Below are positions 7,047-25,494 of a DNA stretch of 36,452 nt, in pieces. The notes beneath the pieces were generated by a model that saw nothing but the letters and a program-made list of their open reading frames with translations, was not told where the DNA came from and did no database searches. The translations under genes were made by a program, and so were the position numbers. The stretch is taken from IMG/VR virus record IMGVR_UViG_2711768063_000002, one strand, 5' to 3'. The first letter of the stretch is position 1; each line of letters starts with the position of its first letter. Source of the DNA: a virus. Lineage: Duplodnaviria > Heunggongvirae > Uroviricota > Caudoviricetes.

Positions 7047-8237
7047 TTAATTGCTGTTAACCGAAGTGACCAGATTTGCCAGGTATTTATCGGTAATACG
7101 CTGGCGCAGGGTCAGGTTTTCAAGAGGAGGCACCGGTGTATAGTCGTAGTCGATATACAGTTTTCCGGCCTTGAGGGTTTCCGCATCGTTGGATTCTTCG
7201 CTGAACCAGCAGGTCGCATCCACGATATAGCCGTTTGTTTTCAGCTCACGGAATTTGGCATTGATGCCGTCAACGATGTCGCGAATCAGCGTTGCTGTGA
7301 TGGGCTTATCCACCGCCCACATATGCGCCTCAGCCATCGTGTCGGCCAGCACCTGCGCGGTGCGGGTGTAGTTTTCAAAGAGGAACAGCGGGTCATCAGA
7401 GCAGGTACGGTTACCCCAGAAGCGGAAACCGTCACGGCGAATCAGCGTTGTGACGCCTGACTCGTTAAGCAGGTCAGCATCGGTGCCGGACTCCTGCAAA
7501 TCCCAGAATACAGATGCGCTGATGCCGGTAACACCGTTTACCCCAACGTTGGACAGCGTTTTATGCCAGCCCTGCTCCTGGTCGATTTTAGCGCGCAGCC
7601 CCAGCGCACGGGCGGTGGCATACGCGGTGGCGGTGGTACTGGTGACCGTATCCCATGCGAGGAAATCCGGCCAGATAACCATCAGTTCACGCTGGCTGAA
7701 ATTCTGGCGGTAGGCTTTCACCTCGGAAATGGTCTTACAGCCCCATGCGCTGATATATCCGAAAGCGCGCAGCTTCTGACAGACTGATGCCAGTGCAACA
7801 GCCACCTCTTTGGTGTCCAGTCCAGGCACGCCGAGAATACGCGGTTTAACACCGGTTACTGACTCCGCCGCCAGCAGGGCTTTCAGTCCGGTGTACTGAC
7901 CGTTTTCGTCGGTGGTGCCGATGATATTGGAAACGGTCTGCGCGAGTTTCGTTTCCTCGTCGTCGCCGGTGCCGTCTTCCACACGCACGACAACGGTGAC
8001 CGGTTTTGACTGGTCGGCGATGGCCTGCAACGATGCCGCCAGCGTGCCTTTTTTACCGGCCTTTGCAATTGCGCTCTGCACATTGGTAATCAGCACAGGT
8101 TTATTGAGGGGGAAGGTTTCCGCATCCGCATCGCTGGCCGTGCAGACCATGCCGACAATGGCCGTGGATACGGTGGAAATGACGCGGGTGCCGTCGTTAA
8201 TCTCCAGCACCTGCACGCCGTGATGATAGTCACTCAT
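7047..8237 (-). CDS. FI: Contractile tail sheath protein FI (396 aa)
   Basis: 396-aa ORF MSDYHHGVQVLEINDGTRVISTVSTAIVGMV; same length and position as P2 FI; ATG verified at 8235-8237. Confidence 0.9.
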   Translation of the reverse strand: MSDYHHGVQVLEINDGTRVISTVSTAIVGMVCTASDADAETFPLNKPVLITNVQSAIAKAGKKGTLAASLQAIADQSKPVTVVVRVEDGTGDDEETKLAQTVSNIIGTTDENGQYTGLKALLAAESVTGVKPRILGVPGLDTKEVAVALASVCQKLRAFGYISAWGCKTISEVKAYRQNFSQRELMVIWPDFLAWDTVTSTTATAYATARALGLRAKIDQEQGWHKTLSNVGVNGVTGISASVFWDLQESGTDADLLNESGVTTLIRRDGFRFWGNRTCSDDPLFLFENYTRTAQVLADTMAEAHMWAVDKPITATLIRDIVDGINAKFRELKTNGYIVDATCWFSEESNDAETLKAGKLYIDYDYTPVPPLENLTLRQRITDKYLANLVTSVNSN

Positions 8238-8330
8238 CCGTTTAACTCCGTGGTTAATGGGTGCAACTATTTTCTGTTGTGCAGAGCATGAGACGCTATT
8301 TGACCTGGCTGGTCAGTGGATGAAACAACA

Positions 8331-8360
8331 GATAAAGAAAAGGCGGGCAATTCGCCCGCC
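8331..8360 (-). terminator. Terminator-like hairpin on the minus strand upstream of the FI late promoter region
   Basis: Minus-strand read GGCGGGC-GAATT-GCCCGCC followed by TTTTCTTTATC; no minus-strand gene ends here. Confidence 0.4.
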
Positions 8361-8532
8361 AGTCCTGATTTGTACTCACTCATTTTCCGACTGATAATTT
8401 ACTTAGCCCAAAAGCCATCAAATCTGACAGTCTGCTTTGAGCGAGGAGCGAAAGTTGGCAGCTGTTATTAATTTCACATATATCCTATTGAAAAATGCCA
8501 ATCAAAAGTAGGTCGATTCAATCAGCTATACA

Positions 8533-8565
8533 TTCACATTCTAAAAATTTGGTAATATGTGAAAT
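8533..8565 (+). promoter_or_regulatory. Candidate sigma70 promoter for the kinase gene with extended -10 (TGgTAATAT at 8550..8558)
   Basis: TG at 8550-8551 then TAATAT at 8553-8558; possible -35 TTCACA at 8533-8538 has a short 14-bp spacer, so the call rests on the extended -10. Lies about 45 nt upstream of the ATG in an A+T-rich intergenic region. Confidence 0.35.
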
Positions 8566-8601
8566 AATGATGCACTGCAAAAGGAACTTATTAACAAAAT
8601 T

Positions 8602-9912
8602 ATGGGGGAGAAAATGGTTGGTGGCGTGTGGAATGACAAATTGGATGCGAAGGCGGCAGGCTGGGTAGCGGATGGTAACAAGAAAAGCGGTGGCCAAGGC
8701 GTGGCGTGTCCAGTGGTTCGTTCTGACATGAGAGCATTTTTAAAAGTATTGAAAAGCCAGAAAGACCCTGAGCGACGAGCTCGTATGTATCGCGAAGCAG
8801 TCGCTCTCTATACCTATGAACATCCGGGAATTCCATCTCTTATAGAAAGTAATTGCCATCGTTATGAACAAATGAATTACAAACTTTACTTAGTTACAGA
8901 AATAGTTGAAGGCCCAACATTACGTGAGTACATAGAGGAAAATGGGGCTATGTCATTTCAAGATGCGGTTGATATGATAGATCGCCTGTTGGATATAGTC
9001 GAATACTATCATTCTCGTGATGGCATTCACAGAGATATCAAACCTGATAATATTATACTCCGGTGTAATAACCCGGCTGATGCTGTATTGGTAGATTTCG
9101 GTCTCGCATGGCAACCTCAAGATGAGAACGCTCATGCTACTGATAATGGCCAAGAGCTAGGCAATCGTTTCTTAAGGCTCAATGAACTTGCGCCAGACAG
9201 TCCTAATAAACGAGATCCTCGAAGCGATATTACCTTTGTAGTAGGGATTTTATTTTACGTATTAACAGGAAAAAGCCCGTATGTTTTAGAAGAATCTGAG
9301 ACTGGGCGTCGACCTCACCAACGCGATGGAGTATCGGAAAGTATTCATGCCGCTACTAATGGTTGGGCACTTTCAATGCTTGCATTGTTTGACCGTGGTT
9401 TTTCACCGCTATTGAATAGTAGATTTCAGACGGTACAAGAGTTGAGAAAGGAGTTGAAGAGGATGAGCGAAAATAAACCTACATTGGCGGATGGTGAGAT
9501 TCTTTTAGAAATCAAAAAAAGGTTGGAAGCTCAAGGTGCTGAGATAAATAGTGTTTATATGAGTAAAATCAGGGAAGCTGTAAGCGAAATAATTTCAGTT
9601 CGTAATAACATCATAGAAGAGATCGGAGGTCATCTGTCTGGAGTTGAAACTGGATACTATAAATCTGAGCCCCGTCATTCTTGGTTAAACATAGGATTTG
9701 ATACCCCTGGTACTTCGTATCCTCGTTTCCGACCTACATTTGACTTTCAAATTATTGCTGATGAACTCATCATTACTGTCTTTTCAGAAGATCGGCAGGG
9801 TGTTGCTAAAACTATCTGGCGCACGGATGTTTCAAACTCTGACTTTGGTGATATTTTCCGCCGTAAGATCAGAGAAATATTTGTCACTGGGTTGAGCGAA
9901 ATTTTTAGTTAA
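8602..9912 (+). CDS. Hanks-type (eukaryotic-like) Ser/Thr protein kinase with an uncharacterised C-terminal domain of about 150-170 aa (436 aa); candidate phage-defence cargo
   Basis: Catalytic loop HRDIKPDNIIL, DFG motif VDFGLA, Gly-rich loop region GNKKSGGQGVA, candidate beta3 lysine in AFLKVLK, APD motif in ELAPDSP. A+T-rich, opposite strand to the tail operons, at the P2 Z/fun position. An alternative ATG at 8614 has a better SD (GGGGAG). Confidence 0.8.
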   Translation: MGEKMVGGVWNDKLDAKAAGWVADGNKKSGGQGVACPVVRSDMRAFLKVLKSQKDPERRARMYREAVALYTYEHPGIPSLIESNCHRYEQMNYKLYLVTEIVEGPTLREYIEENGAMSFQDAVDMIDRLLDIVEYYHSRDGIHRDIKPDNIILRCNNPADAVLVDFGLAWQPQDENAHATDNGQELGNRFLRLNELAPDSPNKRDPRSDITFVVGILFYVLTGKSPYVLEESETGRRPHQRDGVSESIHAATNGWALSMLALFDRGFSPLLNSRFQTVQELRKELKRMSENKPTLADGEILLEIKKRLEAQGAEINSVYMSKIREAVSEIISVRNNIIEEIGGHLSGVETGYYKSEPRHSWLNIGFDTPGTSYPRFRPTFDFQIIADELIITVFSEDRQGVAKTIWRTDVSNSDFGDIFRRKIREIFVTGLSEIFS

Positions 9913-10020
9913 TAGCTTGTGCCCATTAATATTAATTTTTATTAATGCTTTAGTTAAATATGATGCTCAGCACCTTATTAATTAACACATAGTGAAGTTT
10001 ATAGGGACAGCTCTTGGCAC

Positions 10021-10040
10021 AGGGCTGCTGTTGCAGCCCT
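10021..10040. other. GC-rich hairpin between the convergent kinase and G genes (AGGGCTGC-TGTT-GCAGCCCT)
   Basis: Perfect 8-bp inverted repeat with a 4-nt loop; no U-tract on either strand, so it is not a canonical intrinsic terminator. Confidence 0.3.
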
Positions 10041-10097
10041 AACCCCCCTAGACTTCAGTGCTATAGATACGTTAGCTCACACCAGAGCTCATACAAC

Positions 10098-10625
10098 TTA
10101 TTGCGGCATTTCCGGCCATTCAGGATTTGCAGGATCCACACGACTGACCAGAACGCTGTAGCGTTCCCATGCTTCCAGTCGGCTACGCTCCTCATCTGTT
10201 GCCATGTTCAGTCTGACCGCGCGCTCCAGCGGCAAAATCACGGATTCAGCATCTGCAAGAAGTCTGGCTTTCCGGTTTTCTGCCTGCTGCTGCAATTCCT
10301 CTGCCGTATAAATGCGTTTAATCACTTTGCCGTCCTTAAACATCCAGTTCCCTGAAATGTTCGCCCGCCGGTTAGCAGTAATATCCGCCACTTCAACAAC
10401 ACTTAATCCATCCGGTCTGATAGCTGTCGCATCCTTTTCCACATAGCGGATGATATTATCTTTGTCGTACGCTATTTTTAGCGTGTCATCAGCAAAATAC
10501 TTTTGTTCTTCGTACCAGTTCTTACCATCTTCTGAAAAAAACCAGACAACATCAAAGTCTTTTGTCAATTGATATTGTTCAACCGTTTTTGGATTACCTG
10601 CCGTTATATTTATCAAATGCTGCAT
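10098..10625 (-). CDS. G: Tail fibre assembly protein G (175 aa)
   Basis: 175-aa ORF immediately downstream of H; same length and position as P2 gpG; ATG verified at 10623-10625. Confidence 0.85.
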
Positions 10626-10628
10626 AAA

Positions 10629-12947
10629 TTATACCTGCGCCACGTTATACCAAGTCCCGTTAATGTATTTCTGCACCGGTCTGTAATATACGCCACCAAT
10701 GTTATCGGCAGAGTTTGAGCCGGTATCCTGAACAATAATGCCGGAATATACACACCCGGACGGTGCCTGATGTGTCCATGTCATGCCATTGTTCGCAGGT
10801 TTGTATGTGGCAGCACCACCAAGCCGGATATCCCGGACATAGCGTGAATCAAAATTACTATAGTTAGATGGTGATACCTGCCCGTTAACAGCAAAAGTGA
10901 TGCTGTTATCTGTATTTCTCTGACTGTAAAAATGCCAGCCTGCATCATCACCTAATTCAGCCACCACAGGACGACTTGAGTTTCCCCACAAATTGAATGC
11001 GGCTTCCTTCGTGGATGTATTGCTGCTGCTGACCGTGAACTTTTTCCCGCTACCGGCACGTACTTTGGTACTTGAGACAATATCACCAGTAACACTCAGG
11101 CCATGCCCCATTGATACAGCACCCGTGGCATCATTTATAATCAGTGGTCTTAAATTATTATAAGTACCTAATCTGTCACCTGATTTAGTCAACATAAAAT
11201 AAGTGCTGCTGCCATCATTCCTGATAAAGAATCCATAATTGCCATAAGCAATGCGCAGACCATTAGCACTGAGTGATGTAATCTCACCTCTTGAACGGAG
11301 ACCATAAGCGGAGCTGAGTGATAATTCTTCCTGAGCATCAGTATTACCAGTCGCCCAGCGAACTACCCCGCCCTGTACTGTTTCATGCCAGATAGTGTCT
11401 CCTTCTCCACCACGAAACTTTCTGAGATATTTTTTGCCGCCTCTGGTGCCTGAACATAAGGCCGTAGACATATAGGCATTCTGGCTTCCGCCATCCTGAT
11501 TAATCGTTCCGGTCATTGAGTCGCCCTGACGATTCCAGTCACGACGCCAGCCGGGGGAGTAGCCGTCCCCATGATTAATGTAAGTGAATTGCGCGCTGGT
11601 TGTACCGCCACCACTTGATGTTGTCGGCGTGGTCACTCGGATAGTGATTGCAGATTTAGTTCCCATGACCTCGACGACACAACCAGCCAGGTGGATATCA
11701 CCACATCCGGTATCCGTAATGATTTTGTTATTTGCATATGACCAGGAGCCTTTGCACATCCAGTACGGATGATTAAATGCACCACGGGAATCCAGCCATT
11801 CAATAAACTGAGCGGTTGTCCAGTTTCCGGCTTCAGTGCTCAAAGCGCCGCTATAAGCACGACAGGCACCGATATTTTTCGTGAAGGTATCCTTTCCCGG
11901 AATATCCGCACCGTTCTGATCTTTCTGAAGACGTTTTTCAGCATTGTCATAGGCAGACTTCACTGCTTTTGGCGTTGCCGCGAGGGTTTCAGAATCACTG
12001 TTGGTGGCGCTACTGAGCTGGACAAGACCTTTTCGCGCCGTGGTGGCATCCTGTGCAGTGTATTTCCCGTTAGCAAGGTCATACGCTGTCTTAACCGCCT
12101 TTGGTGTTGCCGCAAGCGTTTCAGAATCGCTGTTGGTGACGCTACTGAGCTGGACAAGACCTTTTCGCGCTGTGGTGGCGTCCTGTGCAGTGTATTTCCC
12201 GTTAGCAAGGTCATACGCGGCCTTTACCGCTTTTGGTGTTGCGGCGAGCGTTTCAGACGTGCTGTTGGTGGCACTACTGAGCTGGACAAGACCTTTTCGC
12301 GCTGTGGTGGCATCCTGCGCAGTATATTTCCTGTTAGCAAGGTCATACGCGGCCTTTACCGCTTTCGGCGTTGCGGCCAGTGTTTCAGACGTGCTGTTGG
12401 TCGCACTGCTTAACTGAGTAAAACCTTTGGCGGTCAGCGAGGCGTCCGGGTGACGTCGTGACTGTTCGTGCTCTGCAATTTTGTCATCAACGTAATCCTG
12501 TGTCGCCATCACCGTTGTGGTGTCAATGGTCAGCTCCACCGAGGCCACACTGCTGACGATGATGACCATGCGACAGGTCTGCGAACGCCCTGAGCCTTCG
12601 GCAAGAGCTGGCTTATAACTTTCGGCCATGTTCGCCACGGCAATTAGCGTTCCCGCATCATCGTACAGGCCAAGTTCACGCATCCAGAAACCGCCCACCT
12701 CCGGCGGAATAACCAGCTCTGCGATAATATAATTACTGTTTCGTTTGTCCTGGCTGATTTTGTTCAGCGCATGTCGCCAGACTTCGTGGATAAGCCCGGT
12801 CTGTCCGGCATCCGGGACAGGCAATTTACCACCGCCATCCCCGACGGCCATCGTGGTAATGTTGACCTTCCGCCCTCCCGGTGCGGTTGCCGCTGCCAGC
12901 TTTGCTGCACCGGCAGTGGTGATAACGGTTTTGAATTTTGTGCTCAT
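10629..12947 (-). CDS. H: Tail fibre protein H (772 aa) with internal tandem repeats
   Basis: N-terminus MSTKFKTVITTAGAAKLAAATAPGGRKVNITTMAVGDGGGKLP as in P2-like gpH; four copies of an approximately 40-aa repeat (KGLVQLSSATNSTSETLAATPKAVKAAYDLANGKYTAQDATTAR). Confidence 0.9.
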   Translation of the reverse strand: MSTKFKTVITTAGAAKLAAATAPGGRKVNITTMAVGDGGGKLPVPDAGQTGLIHEVWRHALNKISQDKRNSNYIIAELVIPPEVGGFWMRELGLYDDAGTLIAVANMAESYKPALAEGSGRSQTCRMVIIVSSVASVELTIDTTTVMATQDYVDDKIAEHEQSRRHPDASLTAKGFTQLSSATNSTSETLAATPKAVKAAYDLANRKYTAQDATTARKGLVQLSSATNSTSETLAATPKAVKAAYDLANGKYTAQDATTARKGLVQLSSVTNSDSETLAATPKAVKTAYDLANGKYTAQDATTARKGLVQLSSATNSDSETLAATPKAVKSAYDNAEKRLQKDQNGADIPGKDTFTKNIGACRAYSGALSTEAGNWTTAQFIEWLDSRGAFNHPYWMCKGSWSYANNKIITDTGCGDIHLAGCVVEVMGTKSAITIRVTTPTTSSGGGTTSAQFTYINHGDGYSPGWRRDWNRQGDSMTGTINQDGGSQNAYMSTALCSGTRGGKKYLRKFRGGEGDTIWHETVQGGVVRWATGNTDAQEELSLSSAYGLRSRGEITSLSANGLRIAYGNYGFFIRNDGSSTYFMLTKSGDRLGTYNNLRPLIINDATGAVSMGHGLSVTGDIVSSTKVRAGSGKKFTVSSSNTSTKEAAFNLWGNSSRPVVAELGDDAGWHFYSQRNTDNSITFAVNGQVSPSNYSNFDSRYVRDIRLGGAATYKPANNGMTWTHQAPSGCVYSGIIVQDTGSNSADNIGGVYYRPVQKYINGTWYNVAQV
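11942..12431. repeat. Four tandem copies of an approximately 120-bp repeat inside the tail fibre gene H
   Basis: Near-identical DNA blocks (for example GCTACTGAGCTGGACAAGACCTTTTCGCGC recurs four times), encoding the repeated tail-fibre peptide. Confidence 0.8.
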
Positions 12948-15456: not shown

Positions 15457-16242
15457 ATGGTCAGCTATAATGTGACTAATGTGTGGGAGCTAATCGTTTT
15501 GTATCTTTTGGTCTTTGCAGTATTAGCATTTTTTAGCTTTGGTAAAAGTAACCTTATGAGGCTTATTGCACATTATTTCAAATTTGGATATTCAGACAAA
15601 AAATTAAAAAGACTGGACCGCGAGTGGCGCGACATTCAACTATTTAAAACACTTAACGGAATCAATGTATCAGGCATCGAAGATGTGAGAATGATACAGC
15701 AGGGGCTGATTGATGGAAAACTAAAAACATCGGATTTTTTCCTTACTCGCTTCTGGGGAGACATAACAGAACCGCTATGCATCACAAAAACAATGAGTGC
15801 AGTCCTGGCCGGAATTCTTTATATTATCTTCGCATGTTACATACACAATGAACAATCCGCTATAGTAAGGGATGCCATAGGTATACCATATAAAAACATG
15901 ATGTACTATGTTTATAGTGACAAAGTTCTTTTATCCTTCAAAAATAAAACAGTTGAATTTAATAAAACTTATAGCCTTGCCGATTGCAAGAGTCTGCAAA
16001 ACGTATTTATAAAAGACACACTTCCTGAGATCGCCTGCAATAAGCTCTTACAGCTAAACGAGGAGGACTCCGAATGGTTAAGTCAGGAGATTAAAGATAA
16101 TAACAGCCACAGAAAAACATTATTAATAATATCCCTAACCTATTTCATTTCAGGTCTGCTTATATTCCTGTCATATGCAAAATTCCTTTACGCCAATAAG
16201 AAGGTTTTAGAATACAAAGCATCAAATAAAAACCACTCATAA
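15457..16242 (+). CDS. Predicted multi-pass membrane protein of unknown function (261 aa); cargo at the S/V (P2 orf30) position
   Basis: Strong SD AAGGAG 6 nt before the ATG; three hydrophobic helices (LIVLYLLVFAVLAFFSF, MSAVLAGILYIIFACYI, LLIISLTYFISGLLIFLSY); very A+T-rich with Lys/Asn/Ile-rich codons; opposite strand to flanking tail genes. Confidence 0.75.
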   Translation: MVSYNVTNVWELIVLYLLVFAVLAFFSFGKSNLMRLIAHYFKFGYSDKKLKRLDREWRDIQLFKTLNGINVSGIEDVRMIQQGLIDGKLKTSDFFLTRFWGDITEPLCITKTMSAVLAGILYIIFACYIHNEQSAIVRDAIGIPYKNMMYYVYSDKVLLSFKNKTVEFNKTYSLADCKSLQNVFIKDTLPEIACNKLLQLNEEDSEWLSQEIKDNNSHRKTLLIISLTYFISGLLIFLSYAKFLYANKKVLEYKASNKNHS

Positions 16243-17226: not shown

Positions 17227-17479
17227 CGTTTTCGTCCTGACAGTGTTTAATCATTTTTACCTGGCTGGCACAGCGTGCCAGCGCGTTCTCAAGCTGCCGG
17301 ATATCAGCACTTAAATCGCCGTTCGTCTGCGGGTCACTGCCCGGCATCGGGCAAAGGCTCACTTTCGGGCAGGCGTTGGCGACAATCACTGGCGTCTGCG
17401 CAGGCGGGGCGCTGGTGCAACCGGCGCACAGCATCAGGCAGGTCAGCGCCGTACCAGCGGCGAAAATCTTCGTTTTCAT
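17189..17479 (-). CDS. lysC: LysC, Rz1-like outer-membrane lipoprotein spanin (96 aa), nested out of frame in lysB and overlapping R
   Basis: ATG at 17477-17479 gives MKTKIFAAGTALTCLMLCAGCTSAPP with lipobox LCAGC and a Pro-rich mature part; embedded in the lysB 3' region as in P2. Confidence 0.7.
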   Translation of the reverse strand: MKTKIFAAGTALTCLMLCAGCTSAPPAQTPVIVANACPKVSLCPMPGSDPQTNGDLSADIRQLENALARCASQVKMIKHCQDENDAQTRQPAQGAD

Positions 17480-17759
17480 TGAGTAACCTCGTGATGGTTT
17501 TCTCGCGCTGTGCTTCACGCTTCGCGGCGTTCTCCAGTTCCTGACGCAGAGCCACCTGCGCCAGCTCGATTTTGTCTGCCCTGGTGAGCGCAACATGAAG
17601 CTGATTTTTCAGCATGGTGATGGTCGTCTGCTGTTCACTGGCGACGTTGTTCGCCCTGTCCAGCGAGGCGCGCAGGCTGGCATTTTTATGTTTCACCAGA
17701 AACAGACCGGCCACCGCCAGTGATAACAACACAACCAGCACAGTCATCAGCTTTGACAT
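17334..17759 (-). CDS. lysB: LysB, Rz-like inner-membrane spanin (141 aa)
   Basis: N-terminal TM helix (LMTVLVVLLSLAVAGLFLV) then coiled-coil region; same length and position as P2 LysB. Confidence 0.85.
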   Translation of the reverse strand: MSKLMTVLVVLLSLAVAGLFLVKHKNASLRASLDRANNVASEQQTTITMLKNQLHVALTRADKIELAQVALRQELENAAKREAQREKTITRLLNENEDFRRWYGADLPDAVRRLHQRPACADASDCRQRLPESEPLPDAGQ

Positions 17760-22687: not shown

Positions 22688-24460
22688 ATGACCATCACCA
22701 CAGACACCACTCTTTTACACGACCCGCGTCGTCAGGCGGCGCTGCTGTACTGGCAGGGATTTTCCGTGCCGCAGATTGCCGCCATGTTGCAGATGAAACG
22801 CCCGACGGTGCAGAGCTGGAAACAGCGCGACGGCTGGGACAGCGTTGCCCCCATCAGCCGTGTCGAAATGAGTCTGGAAGCGCGACTGACCCAGCTCATC
22901 ATCAAACCGCAGAAAACCGGCGGTGACTTCAAGGAAATTGACCTGCTCGGACGCCAGATTGAACGACTGGCACGGGTCAACCGTTACAGTCAGACCGGCA
23001 ACGAGGCAGACCTTAATCCGAACGTTGCTAACCGCAACAAAGGCGGGCGGCGCAAACCGAAAAAGAATTTTTTCAGTGACGAGGCCATCGAAAAGCTGGA
23101 GCAGATTTTCTTTGAGCAGTCTTTCGACTATCAGTTGCACTGGTATCGCGCCGGGCTTGAGCACCGCATCCGCGATATCCTGAAATCCCGCCAGATTGGC
23201 GCAACGTTTTATTTTTCCCGCGAGGCGCTGCTGCGCGCCCTGAAAACCGGTCATAACCAGATTTTTCTGTCAGCCAGTAAAACGCAGGCGTATGTGTTCC
23301 GCGAATACATCATCGCCTTTGCCCGGCTGGTTGACGTTGACCTGACCGGTGACCCGATTGTCCTGGGCAATAACGGCGCAAAACTGATTTTTCTCGGCAC
23401 CAACTCCAACACCGCACAGAGCCATAACGGCGACCTGTACGTCGACGAGATTTTCTGGATCCCGAATTTTCAGGTACTGCGTAAGGTGGCATCAGGTATG
23501 GCCTCACAGAGTCACCTGCGTTCGACCTATTTCTCCACCCCGTCCACGCTGGCGCACGACGCCTACCCGTTCTGGTCGGGTGAACTGTTTAACCGGGGAC
23601 GCGCCAGCGCCGCCGAACGCGTGGAAATCGACGTCAGTCATAACGCCCTTGCCGGAGGTCTTCTCTGTGCGGACGGCCAGTGGCGGCAGATTGTCACCAT
23701 TGAGGACGCCCTGAAAGGCGGCTGCACGCTGTTCGACATTGAGCAGCTCAAACGCGAAAACAGCGCCGACGATTTTAAAAACCTGTTCATGTGTGAATTT
23801 GTTGACGACAAGGCGTCGGTGTTCCCGTTCGAGGAGCTGCAACGCTGCATGGTCGACACACTGGAAGAATGGGAAGACTATGCGCCGTTTGCCGCGAATC
23901 CGTTCGGCTCCCGCCCGGTATGGATTGGTTACGACCCGTCACACCGTGGCGACAGTGCCGGATGCGTGGTGCTGGCACCGCCGGTGGTGGCCGGTGGCAA
24001 ATTCAGAATACTTGAGCGTCACCAGTGGAAAGGCATGGACTTTGCCACCCAGGCAGAATCCATCCGCAAACTCACCGAAAAATATAACGTTGAATACATC
24101 GGGATTGATGCCACCGGCCTCGGTGTCGGTGTGTTCCAGCTCGTGCGCTCGTTTTATCCCGCCGCGCGCGATATCCGCTACACGCCGGAAATGAAAACCG
24201 CAATGGTGCTCAAGGCAAAAGACGTTATCCGTCGTGGCTGTCTGGAATATGACGTCAGCGCCACCGACATCACCAGCTCGTTTATGGCTATCCGCAAGAC
24301 CATGACCAGCAGCGGACGCAGCGCCACCTATGAGGCCAGCCGCAGCGAGGAAGCCAGCCACGCCGACCTCGCCTGGGCGACCATGCACGCCCTGTTAAAT
24401 GAGCCACTCACCGCCGGTATCAGCACTCCGCTGACATCCACCATTCTGGAGTTTTACTGA
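22688..24460 (+). CDS. P: Terminase ATPase (large) subunit P (590 aa)
   Basis: Trimmed to ATG at 22688 (MTITTDTTLLHDPRRQAALLYWQGFSVPQIAAMLQMKRPTVQSWKQRDGWDS), giving 590 aa as in P2 gpP. Confidence 0.9.
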   Translation: MTITTDTTLLHDPRRQAALLYWQGFSVPQIAAMLQMKRPTVQSWKQRDGWDSVAPISRVEMSLEARLTQLIIKPQKTGGDFKEIDLLGRQIERLARVNRYSQTGNEADLNPNVANRNKGGRRKPKKNFFSDEAIEKLEQIFFEQSFDYQLHWYRAGLEHRIRDILKSRQIGATFYFSREALLRALKTGHNQIFLSASKTQAYVFREYIIAFARLVDVDLTGDPIVLGNNGAKLIFLGTNSNTAQSHNGDLYVDEIFWIPNFQVLRKVASGMASQSHLRSTYFSTPSTLAHDAYPFWSGELFNRGRASAAERVEIDVSHNALAGGLLCADGQWRQIVTIEDALKGGCTLFDIEQLKRENSADDFKNLFMCEFVDDKASVFPFEELQRCMVDTLEEWEDYAPFAANPFGSRPVWIGYDPSHRGDSAGCVVLAPPVVAGGKFRILERHQWKGMDFATQAESIRKLTEKYNVEYIGIDATGLGVGVFQLVRSFYPAARDIRYTPEMKTAMVLKAKDVIRRGCLEYDVSATDITSSFMAIRKTMTSSGRSATYEASRSEEASHADLAWATMHALLNEPLTAGISTPLTSTILEFY

Positions 24461-25494
24461 TGAGCAAGAAAAAAGGGAAAACACCGCGACCAGCGGCAAA
24501 AACAATGACCGCCAGCGCCCCGAAAATGGAGGCATTCACCTTTGGCGAGCCGGTGCCGGTACTCGACCGCCGTGACATTCTGGATTACGTCGAGTGCATC
24601 AGTAACGGCAGATGGTATGAGCCACCAGTCAGCTTTACCGGGCTGGCAAAAAGCCTTCGTGCTGCCGTGCATCACAGCTCCCCGATTTACGTCAAACGTA
24701 ATATTCTGGCCTCAACGTTTATCCCGCACCCGTGGCTTTCGCAACAGGATTTCAGCCGCTTTGTGCTGGATTTTCTGGTGTTCGGTAATGCGTTTCTGGA
24801 AAAGCGATACAGCACCACCGGTAAGGTCATCAGACTGGAAACCTCACCGGCAAAATATACCCGCCGTGGTGTGGAGGAGGATGTTTACTGGTGGGTGCCG
24901 TCCTTCAACGAGCCGACAGCCTTCACGCCCGGCTCCGTGTTTCACCTGCTGGAGCCCGATATTAATCAGGAGCTGTACGGCCTGCCGGAATATCTCAGCG
25001 CCCTTAACTCTGCCTGGCTGAATGAGTCGGCCACGCTGTTCCGCCGCAAGTATTACGAAAACGGCGCACATGCCGGATACATCATGTACGTCACCGATGC
25101 CGTGCAGGATCGCAACGATATCGAAATGCTTCGCGAAAACATGGTGAAGTCGAAAGGCCGCAATAACTTTAAAAATCTGTTTCTCTATGCCCCACAGGGG
25201 AAAGCCGACGGCATTAAAATTATCCCGCTCAGTGAAGTGGCGACGAAGGACGATTTTTTTAATATCAAAAAAGCCAGCGCCGCTGACCTGCTGGACGCGC
25301 ACCGCATCCCCTTTCAGTTGATGGGCGGCAAGCCGGAGAACGTCGGGTCGCTGGGTGATATTGAGAAAGTGGCAAAGGTCTTTGTCCGCAATGAGCTTAT
25401 CCCGTTACAGGACAGGATCCGCGAGATAAACGGCTGGCTCGGTCAGGAGGTCATCCGCTTTAAAAACTACTCACTGGACACTGACAACGGCTGA
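24460..25494 (+). CDS. Q: Portal protein Q (344 aa)
   Basis: 344-aa ORF MSKKKGKTPRPAAKTMTASAPKMEAFTFGEPVPVLDRRDILDYVECI; start overlaps the P stop (TGATG); same length as P2 gpQ. Confidence 0.9.
   Translation: MSKKKGKTPRPAAKTMTASAPKMEAFTFGEPVPVLDRRDILDYVECISNGRWYEPPVSFTGLAKSLRAAVHHSSPIYVKRNILASTFIPHPWLSQQDFSRFVLDFLVFGNAFLEKRYSTTGKVIRLETSPAKYTRRGVEEDVYWWVPSFNEPTAFTPGSVFHLLEPDINQELYGLPEYLSALNSAWLNESATLFRRKYYENGAHAGYIMYVTDAVQDRNDIEMLRENMVKSKGRNNFKNLFLYAPQGKADGIKIIPLSEVATKDDFFNIKKASAADLLDAHRIPFQLMGGKPENVGSLGDIEKVAKVFVRNELIPLQDRIREINGWLGQEVIRFKNYSLDTDNG

Follow-up and report, generated by a model that had tools for sequence, protein, structure and literature searches.

The lone Hanks-type kinase gene in the Z/fun slot of a P2-like prophage is very probably the published anti-phage defence gene PD-T4-6

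What does a lone eukaryotic-like protein kinase gene do between two tail genes of a P2-like prophage, and is it a defence gene that has already been described? The question is raised by IMG/VR virus record IMGVR_UViG_2711768063_000002, a stretch of 36,452 nucleotides (hereafter the window) that represents as a whole a P2-like prophage adjoining a peptidase-U32 gene, with the integrase gene at 34857..35870. A preliminary description made from its letters alone had read the open reading frame (ORF) at 8602..9912 as a single-gene serine/threonine kinase defence system, and had called it an unusual effector for this position. We conclude, with high confidence, that this ORF is PD-T4-6, an E. coli defence system against phages that consists of one gene, and that it is a moron in the Z/fun slot of a P2-like prophage, with its own promoter and antisense to the tail operons. 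A paper of 2022 (PMC9519451) already described the gene, the protection that it gives against T4, the loss of that protection on Lys-to-Ala substitution and the FI/G hotspot; the ORF is therefore not a new system, and the novelty implied by the preliminary description does not hold.

The assignment rests on profile matches and on the published cloning primers. The encoded protein matches Pfam Pkinase (E=3.8e-22; 79.4 bits against a cutoff of 31.7) and the PADLOC PD-T4-6 model PDLC04046 (E=2e-174; 578.7 bits), the latter from residue 8 to residue 435 against model positions 3-424 of 427. This full-length match takes in both the kinase and the C-terminal region, and the top 24 PADLOC matches are all PD-T4-6 models, so the profile check proposed in the preliminary description came out in favour of the kinase and of this family. 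In the original study, PD-T4-6 is clone T4-38 of E. coli UMB0949 (contig RRWI01000019, protein RRM76169.1), with its ORF at 62620..63930 (1311 nt) inside a cloned region at 62441..64162 (1722 bp) (Vassallo et al. 2022, Table S2; PMC9519451). We located the primers in Table S8 of that study (Nat Microbiol) in the window: exact matches lie at 8423..8441 (+ strand) for the gene-specific part of PD-T4-6-F and at 10124..10144 (− strand) for that of PD-T4-6-R. The two primers delimit a stretch on the + strand (8423..10144) of the same extent as the published functional clone, comprising native promoter, ORF and 3′ region; the amplicon is 1722 bp long, the ORF starts 179 bp into it, and both values are those of the published clone. 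Over 8719..8770, the 52-nt mutagenesis primer PD-T4-6_sdm-F departs from the window at exactly three positions, all within the AAA codon of Lys48 (8743..8745, + strand), which it changes to GCG. Lys48 is the β3 ATP-anchoring lysine, present in 68 of 68 aligned homologues, and is Ala (GCG) in the published kinase-dead construct. Because the primers match exactly, the clone geometry is the same and the mutagenesis primer falls into place, the window carries the same locus as the validated clone. The preliminary description had mentioned, with stated uncertainty, a PD-T4-type kinase from an E. coli prophage; the PADLOC match, the primers and the clone geometry identify that kinase as PD-T4-6.

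The phenotype of the gene comes from the same study (PMC9519451). Each system, placed under its native promoter in a promoterless low-copy vector, reduced in MG1655 the efficiency of plating of the phage used to select it; PD-T4-6 cloned alone lowers the plaquing of T4, and, taken together, the ten systems selected with T4 generally protect against T2 and T6 as well. Adsorption was unaffected by any of the systems. Mutation of conserved residues in the predicted domain abolished protection in four cases, among them PD-T4-6 (construct pCV26); judging from its primer, this domain mutant would be Lys48-to-Ala, so that the β3-lysine mutant suggested in the preliminary description had in fact been made, with loss of protection, and published. 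The PD-T4-6 constructs are pCV7 and pCV26, the gene was also placed in E. coli C as pCV1-PD-T4-6, and its slot is named as a second P2 defence hotspot (PMC9519451).

Some points weigh against this reading of the gene and of its function. The four accessions listed for the exact protein of the window do not include RRM76169.1, and a one-residue difference such as P293S may separate this protein from the validated allele. In Table S7 the mutant is called “PD-T4-6B K101A”, but its primer encodes K48A in a single-gene system (PMC9519451). No T4 escape plaques were obtained for PD-T4-6 in the original study (PMC9519451), and its accessible text does not state the trigger, the substrates, or whether the outcome is abortive infection or direct action on the phage. 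As to the first point, the 90% cluster lists three 436-residue E. coli alleles, which differ by single residues (E175K, P293S) and lie at most one residue from the window protein. This suggests that the window protein is either identical to the validated protein or within about one residue of it; the K101A label appears to be a labelling error, and we treat it as such. Table S8 also lists cloning primers for PD-T4-8 that are identical to those for PD-T4-6, reflecting either the same conserved P2 flanks or a copy error (PMC9519451).

Profile names of this kind can mislead, and we therefore weighed whether the PD-T4-6 label is an over-call of a generic Hanks kinase, or the window allele inactive or non-defensive. 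According to a published survey, PD-T4-6 profiles match a conserved PASTA kinase in all S. thermophilus genomes, and one study discarded its PD-T4-6 matches as wrong predictions; the accession difference described above points the same way. Yet the match of the window protein to the top model extends into the family-specific C-terminal domain, the 92 nt of published primers, apart from the engineered codon, fit the window perfectly and with the geometry of the clone, the ORF has neither frameshifts nor stops, all catalytic residues are intact, and the NCBIfam scores for PASTA kinases, PglW and MAD6 fall far under their cutoffs. An over-call or a non-defensive allele is thus exceedingly improbable. 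As a separate observation, at least 24 PADLOC PD-T4-6 models match any Hanks kinase domain at E-values of 1e-23 to 1e-43. Defence censuses that do not ask for the C-terminal domain probably count too many “PD-T4-6” systems; because the profiles over-call generic Hanks kinases, membership in the family should require that domain.

The position of the gene is that of a known cargo site of P2. The slot is bounded on the left by the tail sheath gene FI (396 aa; 7047..8237, − strand), identified by Pfam Phage_sheath_1 in identical copies of the gene (L001-L005) and by the P2 annotation, and on the right by the tail-fibre assembly gene G (175 aa; 10098..10625, − strand), identified by Pfam Caudo_TAP in identical copies and by the P2 annotation. 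In reference P2, the slot of the PD-T4-6 ORF is taken by fun(Z), which is antisense to the tail genes and has G on one side and the pF promoter/FI on the other; the opposite orientation and the Z/fun position that the preliminary description had noted are borne out, with the ORF on the + strand and FI and G both on the − strand. Its remark on base composition also stands: the tail genes on the left have a G+C content of 0.55-0.59, which drops to 0.38-0.46 over 8300..10100. When the flanks are aligned to P2, homology can be followed from FI to about 8456 and from G to about 9997; what lies between, roughly 8457..9996, is the foreign module, and in the ORF listing the kinase is the sole ORF of this cargo with support.

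The flanks themselves are conserved P2 sequence. Upstream of FI, 8238..8456 (− strand) comprises the late promoter pF region and a G+C-rich terminator-like hairpin (8342..8360; terminator scan), and aligns with P2 from ~17420 to 17651, where the Ogr activator site and the start of F-operon transcription are annotated. Downstream of G, the conserved flank spans 9997..10097 (no strand assigned) and aligns to P2 from 15275. A terminator scan downstream of the kinase found none; the only candidate structure there is a G+C-rich hairpin, GGGCTGC-TGTT-GCAGCCC, at 10022..10039, which lacks a T-run and is part of the conserved flank that separates the stop codons of the kinase gene and G. The predicted RNA fold of 9905..10100 is better than that of shuffled sequences (z=-3.09). 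The annotated V-operon terminator of P2 sits in P2-specific sequence, not at the position of this hairpin.

Among 5426 complete E. coli genomes, the conserved flank at 8238..8456 is present in 1024, and the exact kinase protein of the window in five; these five copies are all 100% identical and all lie in the FI/G slot. In other P2-like prophages the same slot holds an HNH endonuclease, a RES-family NAD+ phosphorylase or small hypothetical genes. The site thus shows the features of the Z/fun hotspot: location between G and pF/FI, antisense orientation to the tail operons, and variable content. The FI/G (Z/fun) slot is a real exchange point among P2-like prophages, and the idea that it holds variable anti-phage cargo agrees with these occupants and with the published hotspot (PMC9519451).

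The ORF itself encodes 436 residues followed by a stop codon, starts with ATG (8602..9912, + strand; 1311 nt), and its translation contains DGIHRDIKPDNIILRCNNPADAVLVDFGLAWQ. Its start is ambiguous: GenBank and the original paper use the ATG at 8602 (436 aa), and RefSeq/PGAP uses a second ATG at 8614 (432 aa), which is preceded by a Shine-Dalgarno-like run, GGGGGAG; given these alternatives, residue numbers in the literature may be shifted by four. Between the end of P2 homology and the ORF lies an A+T-rich, cargo-specific region (8457..8601, + strand). The promoter of the kinase gene must lie in this region, because the published clone, which starts at 8423 in a promoterless vector, is functional, and P2 homology stops at about 8456. 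A candidate extended −10 element may be present at 8550..8558 (TGGTAATAT), as read by eye from the letters. A scan for the sigma-70 consensus found no site upstream of the kinase ORF, with counts at the shuffle expectation.

The kinase domain, delimited by its motifs, spans approximately residues 20-290 (8659..9471, + strand). Its motif residues are the Gly-rich loop G30-G33, the β3 Lys48, the αC Glu65, the HRD motif at 143-145, Lys147, Asn150, the DFG motif at 165-167, Thr180, Asp209 and Arg274. A database search returned 475 homologues at E<=1e-5, most of them about 430 residues long, with more than 90% query coverage and 33-40% identity. In an alignment of 68 sequences, G30, K48, E65, H143-R144-D145, K147, N150, D165, G167, D209 and R274 are invariant, as is R407 in the C-terminal domain, and the activation-loop Thr180 is kept in 67 of the 68. 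The Hanks-type identity and the intact HRD and DFG residues read by the preliminary description therefore survive both the Pfam search and realignment. The most conserved stretch is 181-200 (QELGNRFLRLNELAPDS), which contains the family-specific segment ELGNRFLRL; by alignment, this stretch is a family-specific activation-segment/P+1 signature. The conservation pattern is that expected of a catalytically active RD-type Hanks kinase, and because the full catalytic set is invariant in the 68 homologues, selection for catalysis is indicated. A sequence search of the PDB matched kinase domains alone, with matches ending where the kinase domain ends, and found no PD-T4-6 structure.

The C-terminal domain (approximately residues 295-436; 9484..9909, + strand; delimited from a structure model) sets the family apart from generic kinases. 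Modelled alone with a pLDDT of 93.1, it is predicted to consist of two long helices, a five-stranded antiparallel sheet and a C-terminal helix. No viral structural match was found at E<=0.001, and searches gave no confident sequence or structural relative; the model resembles protein-interaction folds such as the FP domain. Across 61 distant homologues, mean identity to the query is 44.5% in the kinase domain and 19.8% in the C-terminal domain; the latter is present in all 61 despite diverging more than twice as fast. The domain is probably a sensor, regulatory, interaction or oligomerisation module. One could go further and suppose that it is an undescribed phage-sensing module, which would bind a component of T-even phages and free an autoinhibited kinase that acts directly on phage proteins, giving direct immunity rather than host killing; we regard this extension as possible but rather doubtful.

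The likeness to interaction folds could also be taken to mean that the protein sequesters a phage factor in the manner of a scaffold or pseudokinase-like binder, with phosphotransfer not being the effector step. The published Lys-to-Ala mutant, however, lost protection (PMC9519451), and the catalytic set, including Asp145 of HRD, Asn150 and Asp165 of DFG, is invariant in the 68 homologues, which makes a non-catalytic role highly improbable.

Our preferred reading remains that of an active kinase, and for its mode of action we propose a sequence of events to which we would give about even chances: the C-terminal domain would hold the kinase in check or mediate oligomerisation, and would recognise an infection cue; activation would follow, probably by autophosphorylation of the near-invariant Thr180; and the active kinase would phosphorylate host and/or phage proteins, halting T-even development in a manner that would resemble staphylococcal Stk2. 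Autophosphorylation of the activation loop is typical of RD kinases. Literature searches for the mechanism of PD-T4-6 returned surveys and prediction counts only, and no later mechanistic study; one paper describes PD-T4-6 as a DNA binding or cleavage protein, which appears to be a mis-citation of a general statement in the original paper.

Does the kinase protect the bacterium, or does it mainly serve the prophage, through control of lysogeny and induction or lysogenic conversion of host physiology, with phage exclusion as a side effect? The gene belongs to a temperate phage, in whose lysogen it is expressed, and a precedent exists in the KKP kinase-kinase-phosphatase module of Pf prophages, which is reported to control both lysogeny and defence (PMC11341870). 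PD-T4-6 cloned alone, however, protects a strain without the prophage (PMC9519451), no phosphatase or second kinase is adjacent to it, and the slot is exchangeable with unrelated defence-type cargo. Its distant homologues, moreover, lie in chromosomal defence islands and not in prophages: three that we inspected are single genes without a conserved partner. The Achromobacter homologue (75% identity) adjoins GmrSD; the Aeromonas homologue (69% identity) is near a UvrD helicase, a Fic protein and a retron-type reverse transcriptase with SLATT; and the Paraburkholderia homologue (37% identity) lies between a NERD helicase and Shedu SduA_C with nSTAND3. A function primarily for the prophage is therefore very unlikely. 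No conserved partner gene, whether phosphatase, antitoxin or effector, was found beside the kinase in the P2 contexts or beside these three homologues. With its own promoter, no obligatory partner and a published clone that carries the kinase gene alone, PD-T4-6 is a single-gene system, and the preliminary description was right to treat it as a lone defence gene.

As a discovery the locus carries little weight, since gene, phenotype, kinase dependence and hotspot were all published in 2022. It is nevertheless a clean positive control, in that a validated defence gene and its cargo slot were recognised from raw sequence. For work on the mechanism of PD-T4-6, the near-invariant Thr180 (67 of 68), the ELGNRFLRL segment and the divergent C-terminal domain offer handles.

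The prophage has further variable regions. The other cargo hotspot of P2 lies between the portal gene Q (24460..25494) and the replication endonuclease gene A (30013..32340). It holds a gene for a 451-residue FRG-domain protein (25943..27298, + strand), which matches the unvalidated PADLOC candidate PDC-S15 (E=7.8e-98) and Pfam FRG (8.9e-23) and may, on these matches, be a second defence gene of the prophage. The same hotspot contains ORFs of 198 residues (27715..28311, − strand) and 251 residues (28394..29149, − strand), both with no Pfam or PADLOC match, and one for a 162-residue DUF3850/ASCH and DUF7415 protein (29561..30049, − strand). An ORF of 261 residues with no Pfam or PADLOC match (15457..16242, + strand) occupies the position of P2 orf30, antisense between the V and S tail genes; it is present in the kinase-carrying prophages L001-L003 and absent from L004 and L005, which makes this a third variable slot. 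The tail-fibre H protein (10629..12947, − strand) contains four tandem copies of a unit of about 44 residues (...YTAQDATTARKGLVQLSSATNS.SETLAATPKAVK.AYDLANGK...); it is 772 residues long in most kinase-carrying prophages and 728 in L004, a difference that would fit the loss of one unit.

As a family assignment for PD-T4-6, the PknB/Stk1 PASTA type was rejected (NF033483, 95.8 against a cutoff of 450, the match being to the kinase domain alone); unlike PknB/Stk1-type kinases, PD-T4-6 has neither a transmembrane segment nor PASTA repeats, and instead carries a soluble cytoplasmic α/β C-terminal domain. BREX PglW (58.9 against a cutoff of 990) and MADS MAD6 (58.4 against 460) gave weak profile matches and were likewise set aside: they share with PD-T4-6 a Hanks kinase domain used in phage defence, but are large multi-domain proteins of multi-gene systems, whereas PD-T4-6 stands alone, with no BREX or MADS genes near it. 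Bud32 and the lanthionine synthetase kinases score far under their curated cutoffs. P2 Fun(Z) shares with PD-T4-6 the position between G and pF/FI and the orientation; its gene acts in lysogenic conversion, is non-essential and blocks phage T5. Fun(Z) differs in being 528 residues long and not a kinase, and descent of PD-T4-6 from it was rejected for lack of sequence similarity (BLASTP E=0.2).

The best mechanistic analogue is Stk2 of Staphylococcus epidermidis and S. aureus, which is, like PD-T4-6, a single eukaryotic-like serine/threonine anti-phage kinase. In that system the phage protein PacK activates the kinase, many host proteins are phosphorylated and abortive infection follows (Depardieu et al. 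2016). The two kinases belong to different lineages and hosts, Stk2 being from Firmicutes, with no evidence of a shared accessory domain, and they are likened here by description and not by sequence. Stk2 moreover acts with Stk1, and to our knowledge E. coli K-12 has no PASTA kinase equivalent to Stk1. If the C-terminal domain of PD-T4-6 did sense a phage component and direct the kinase against phage proteins, this would set PD-T4-6 mechanistically apart from Stk2.

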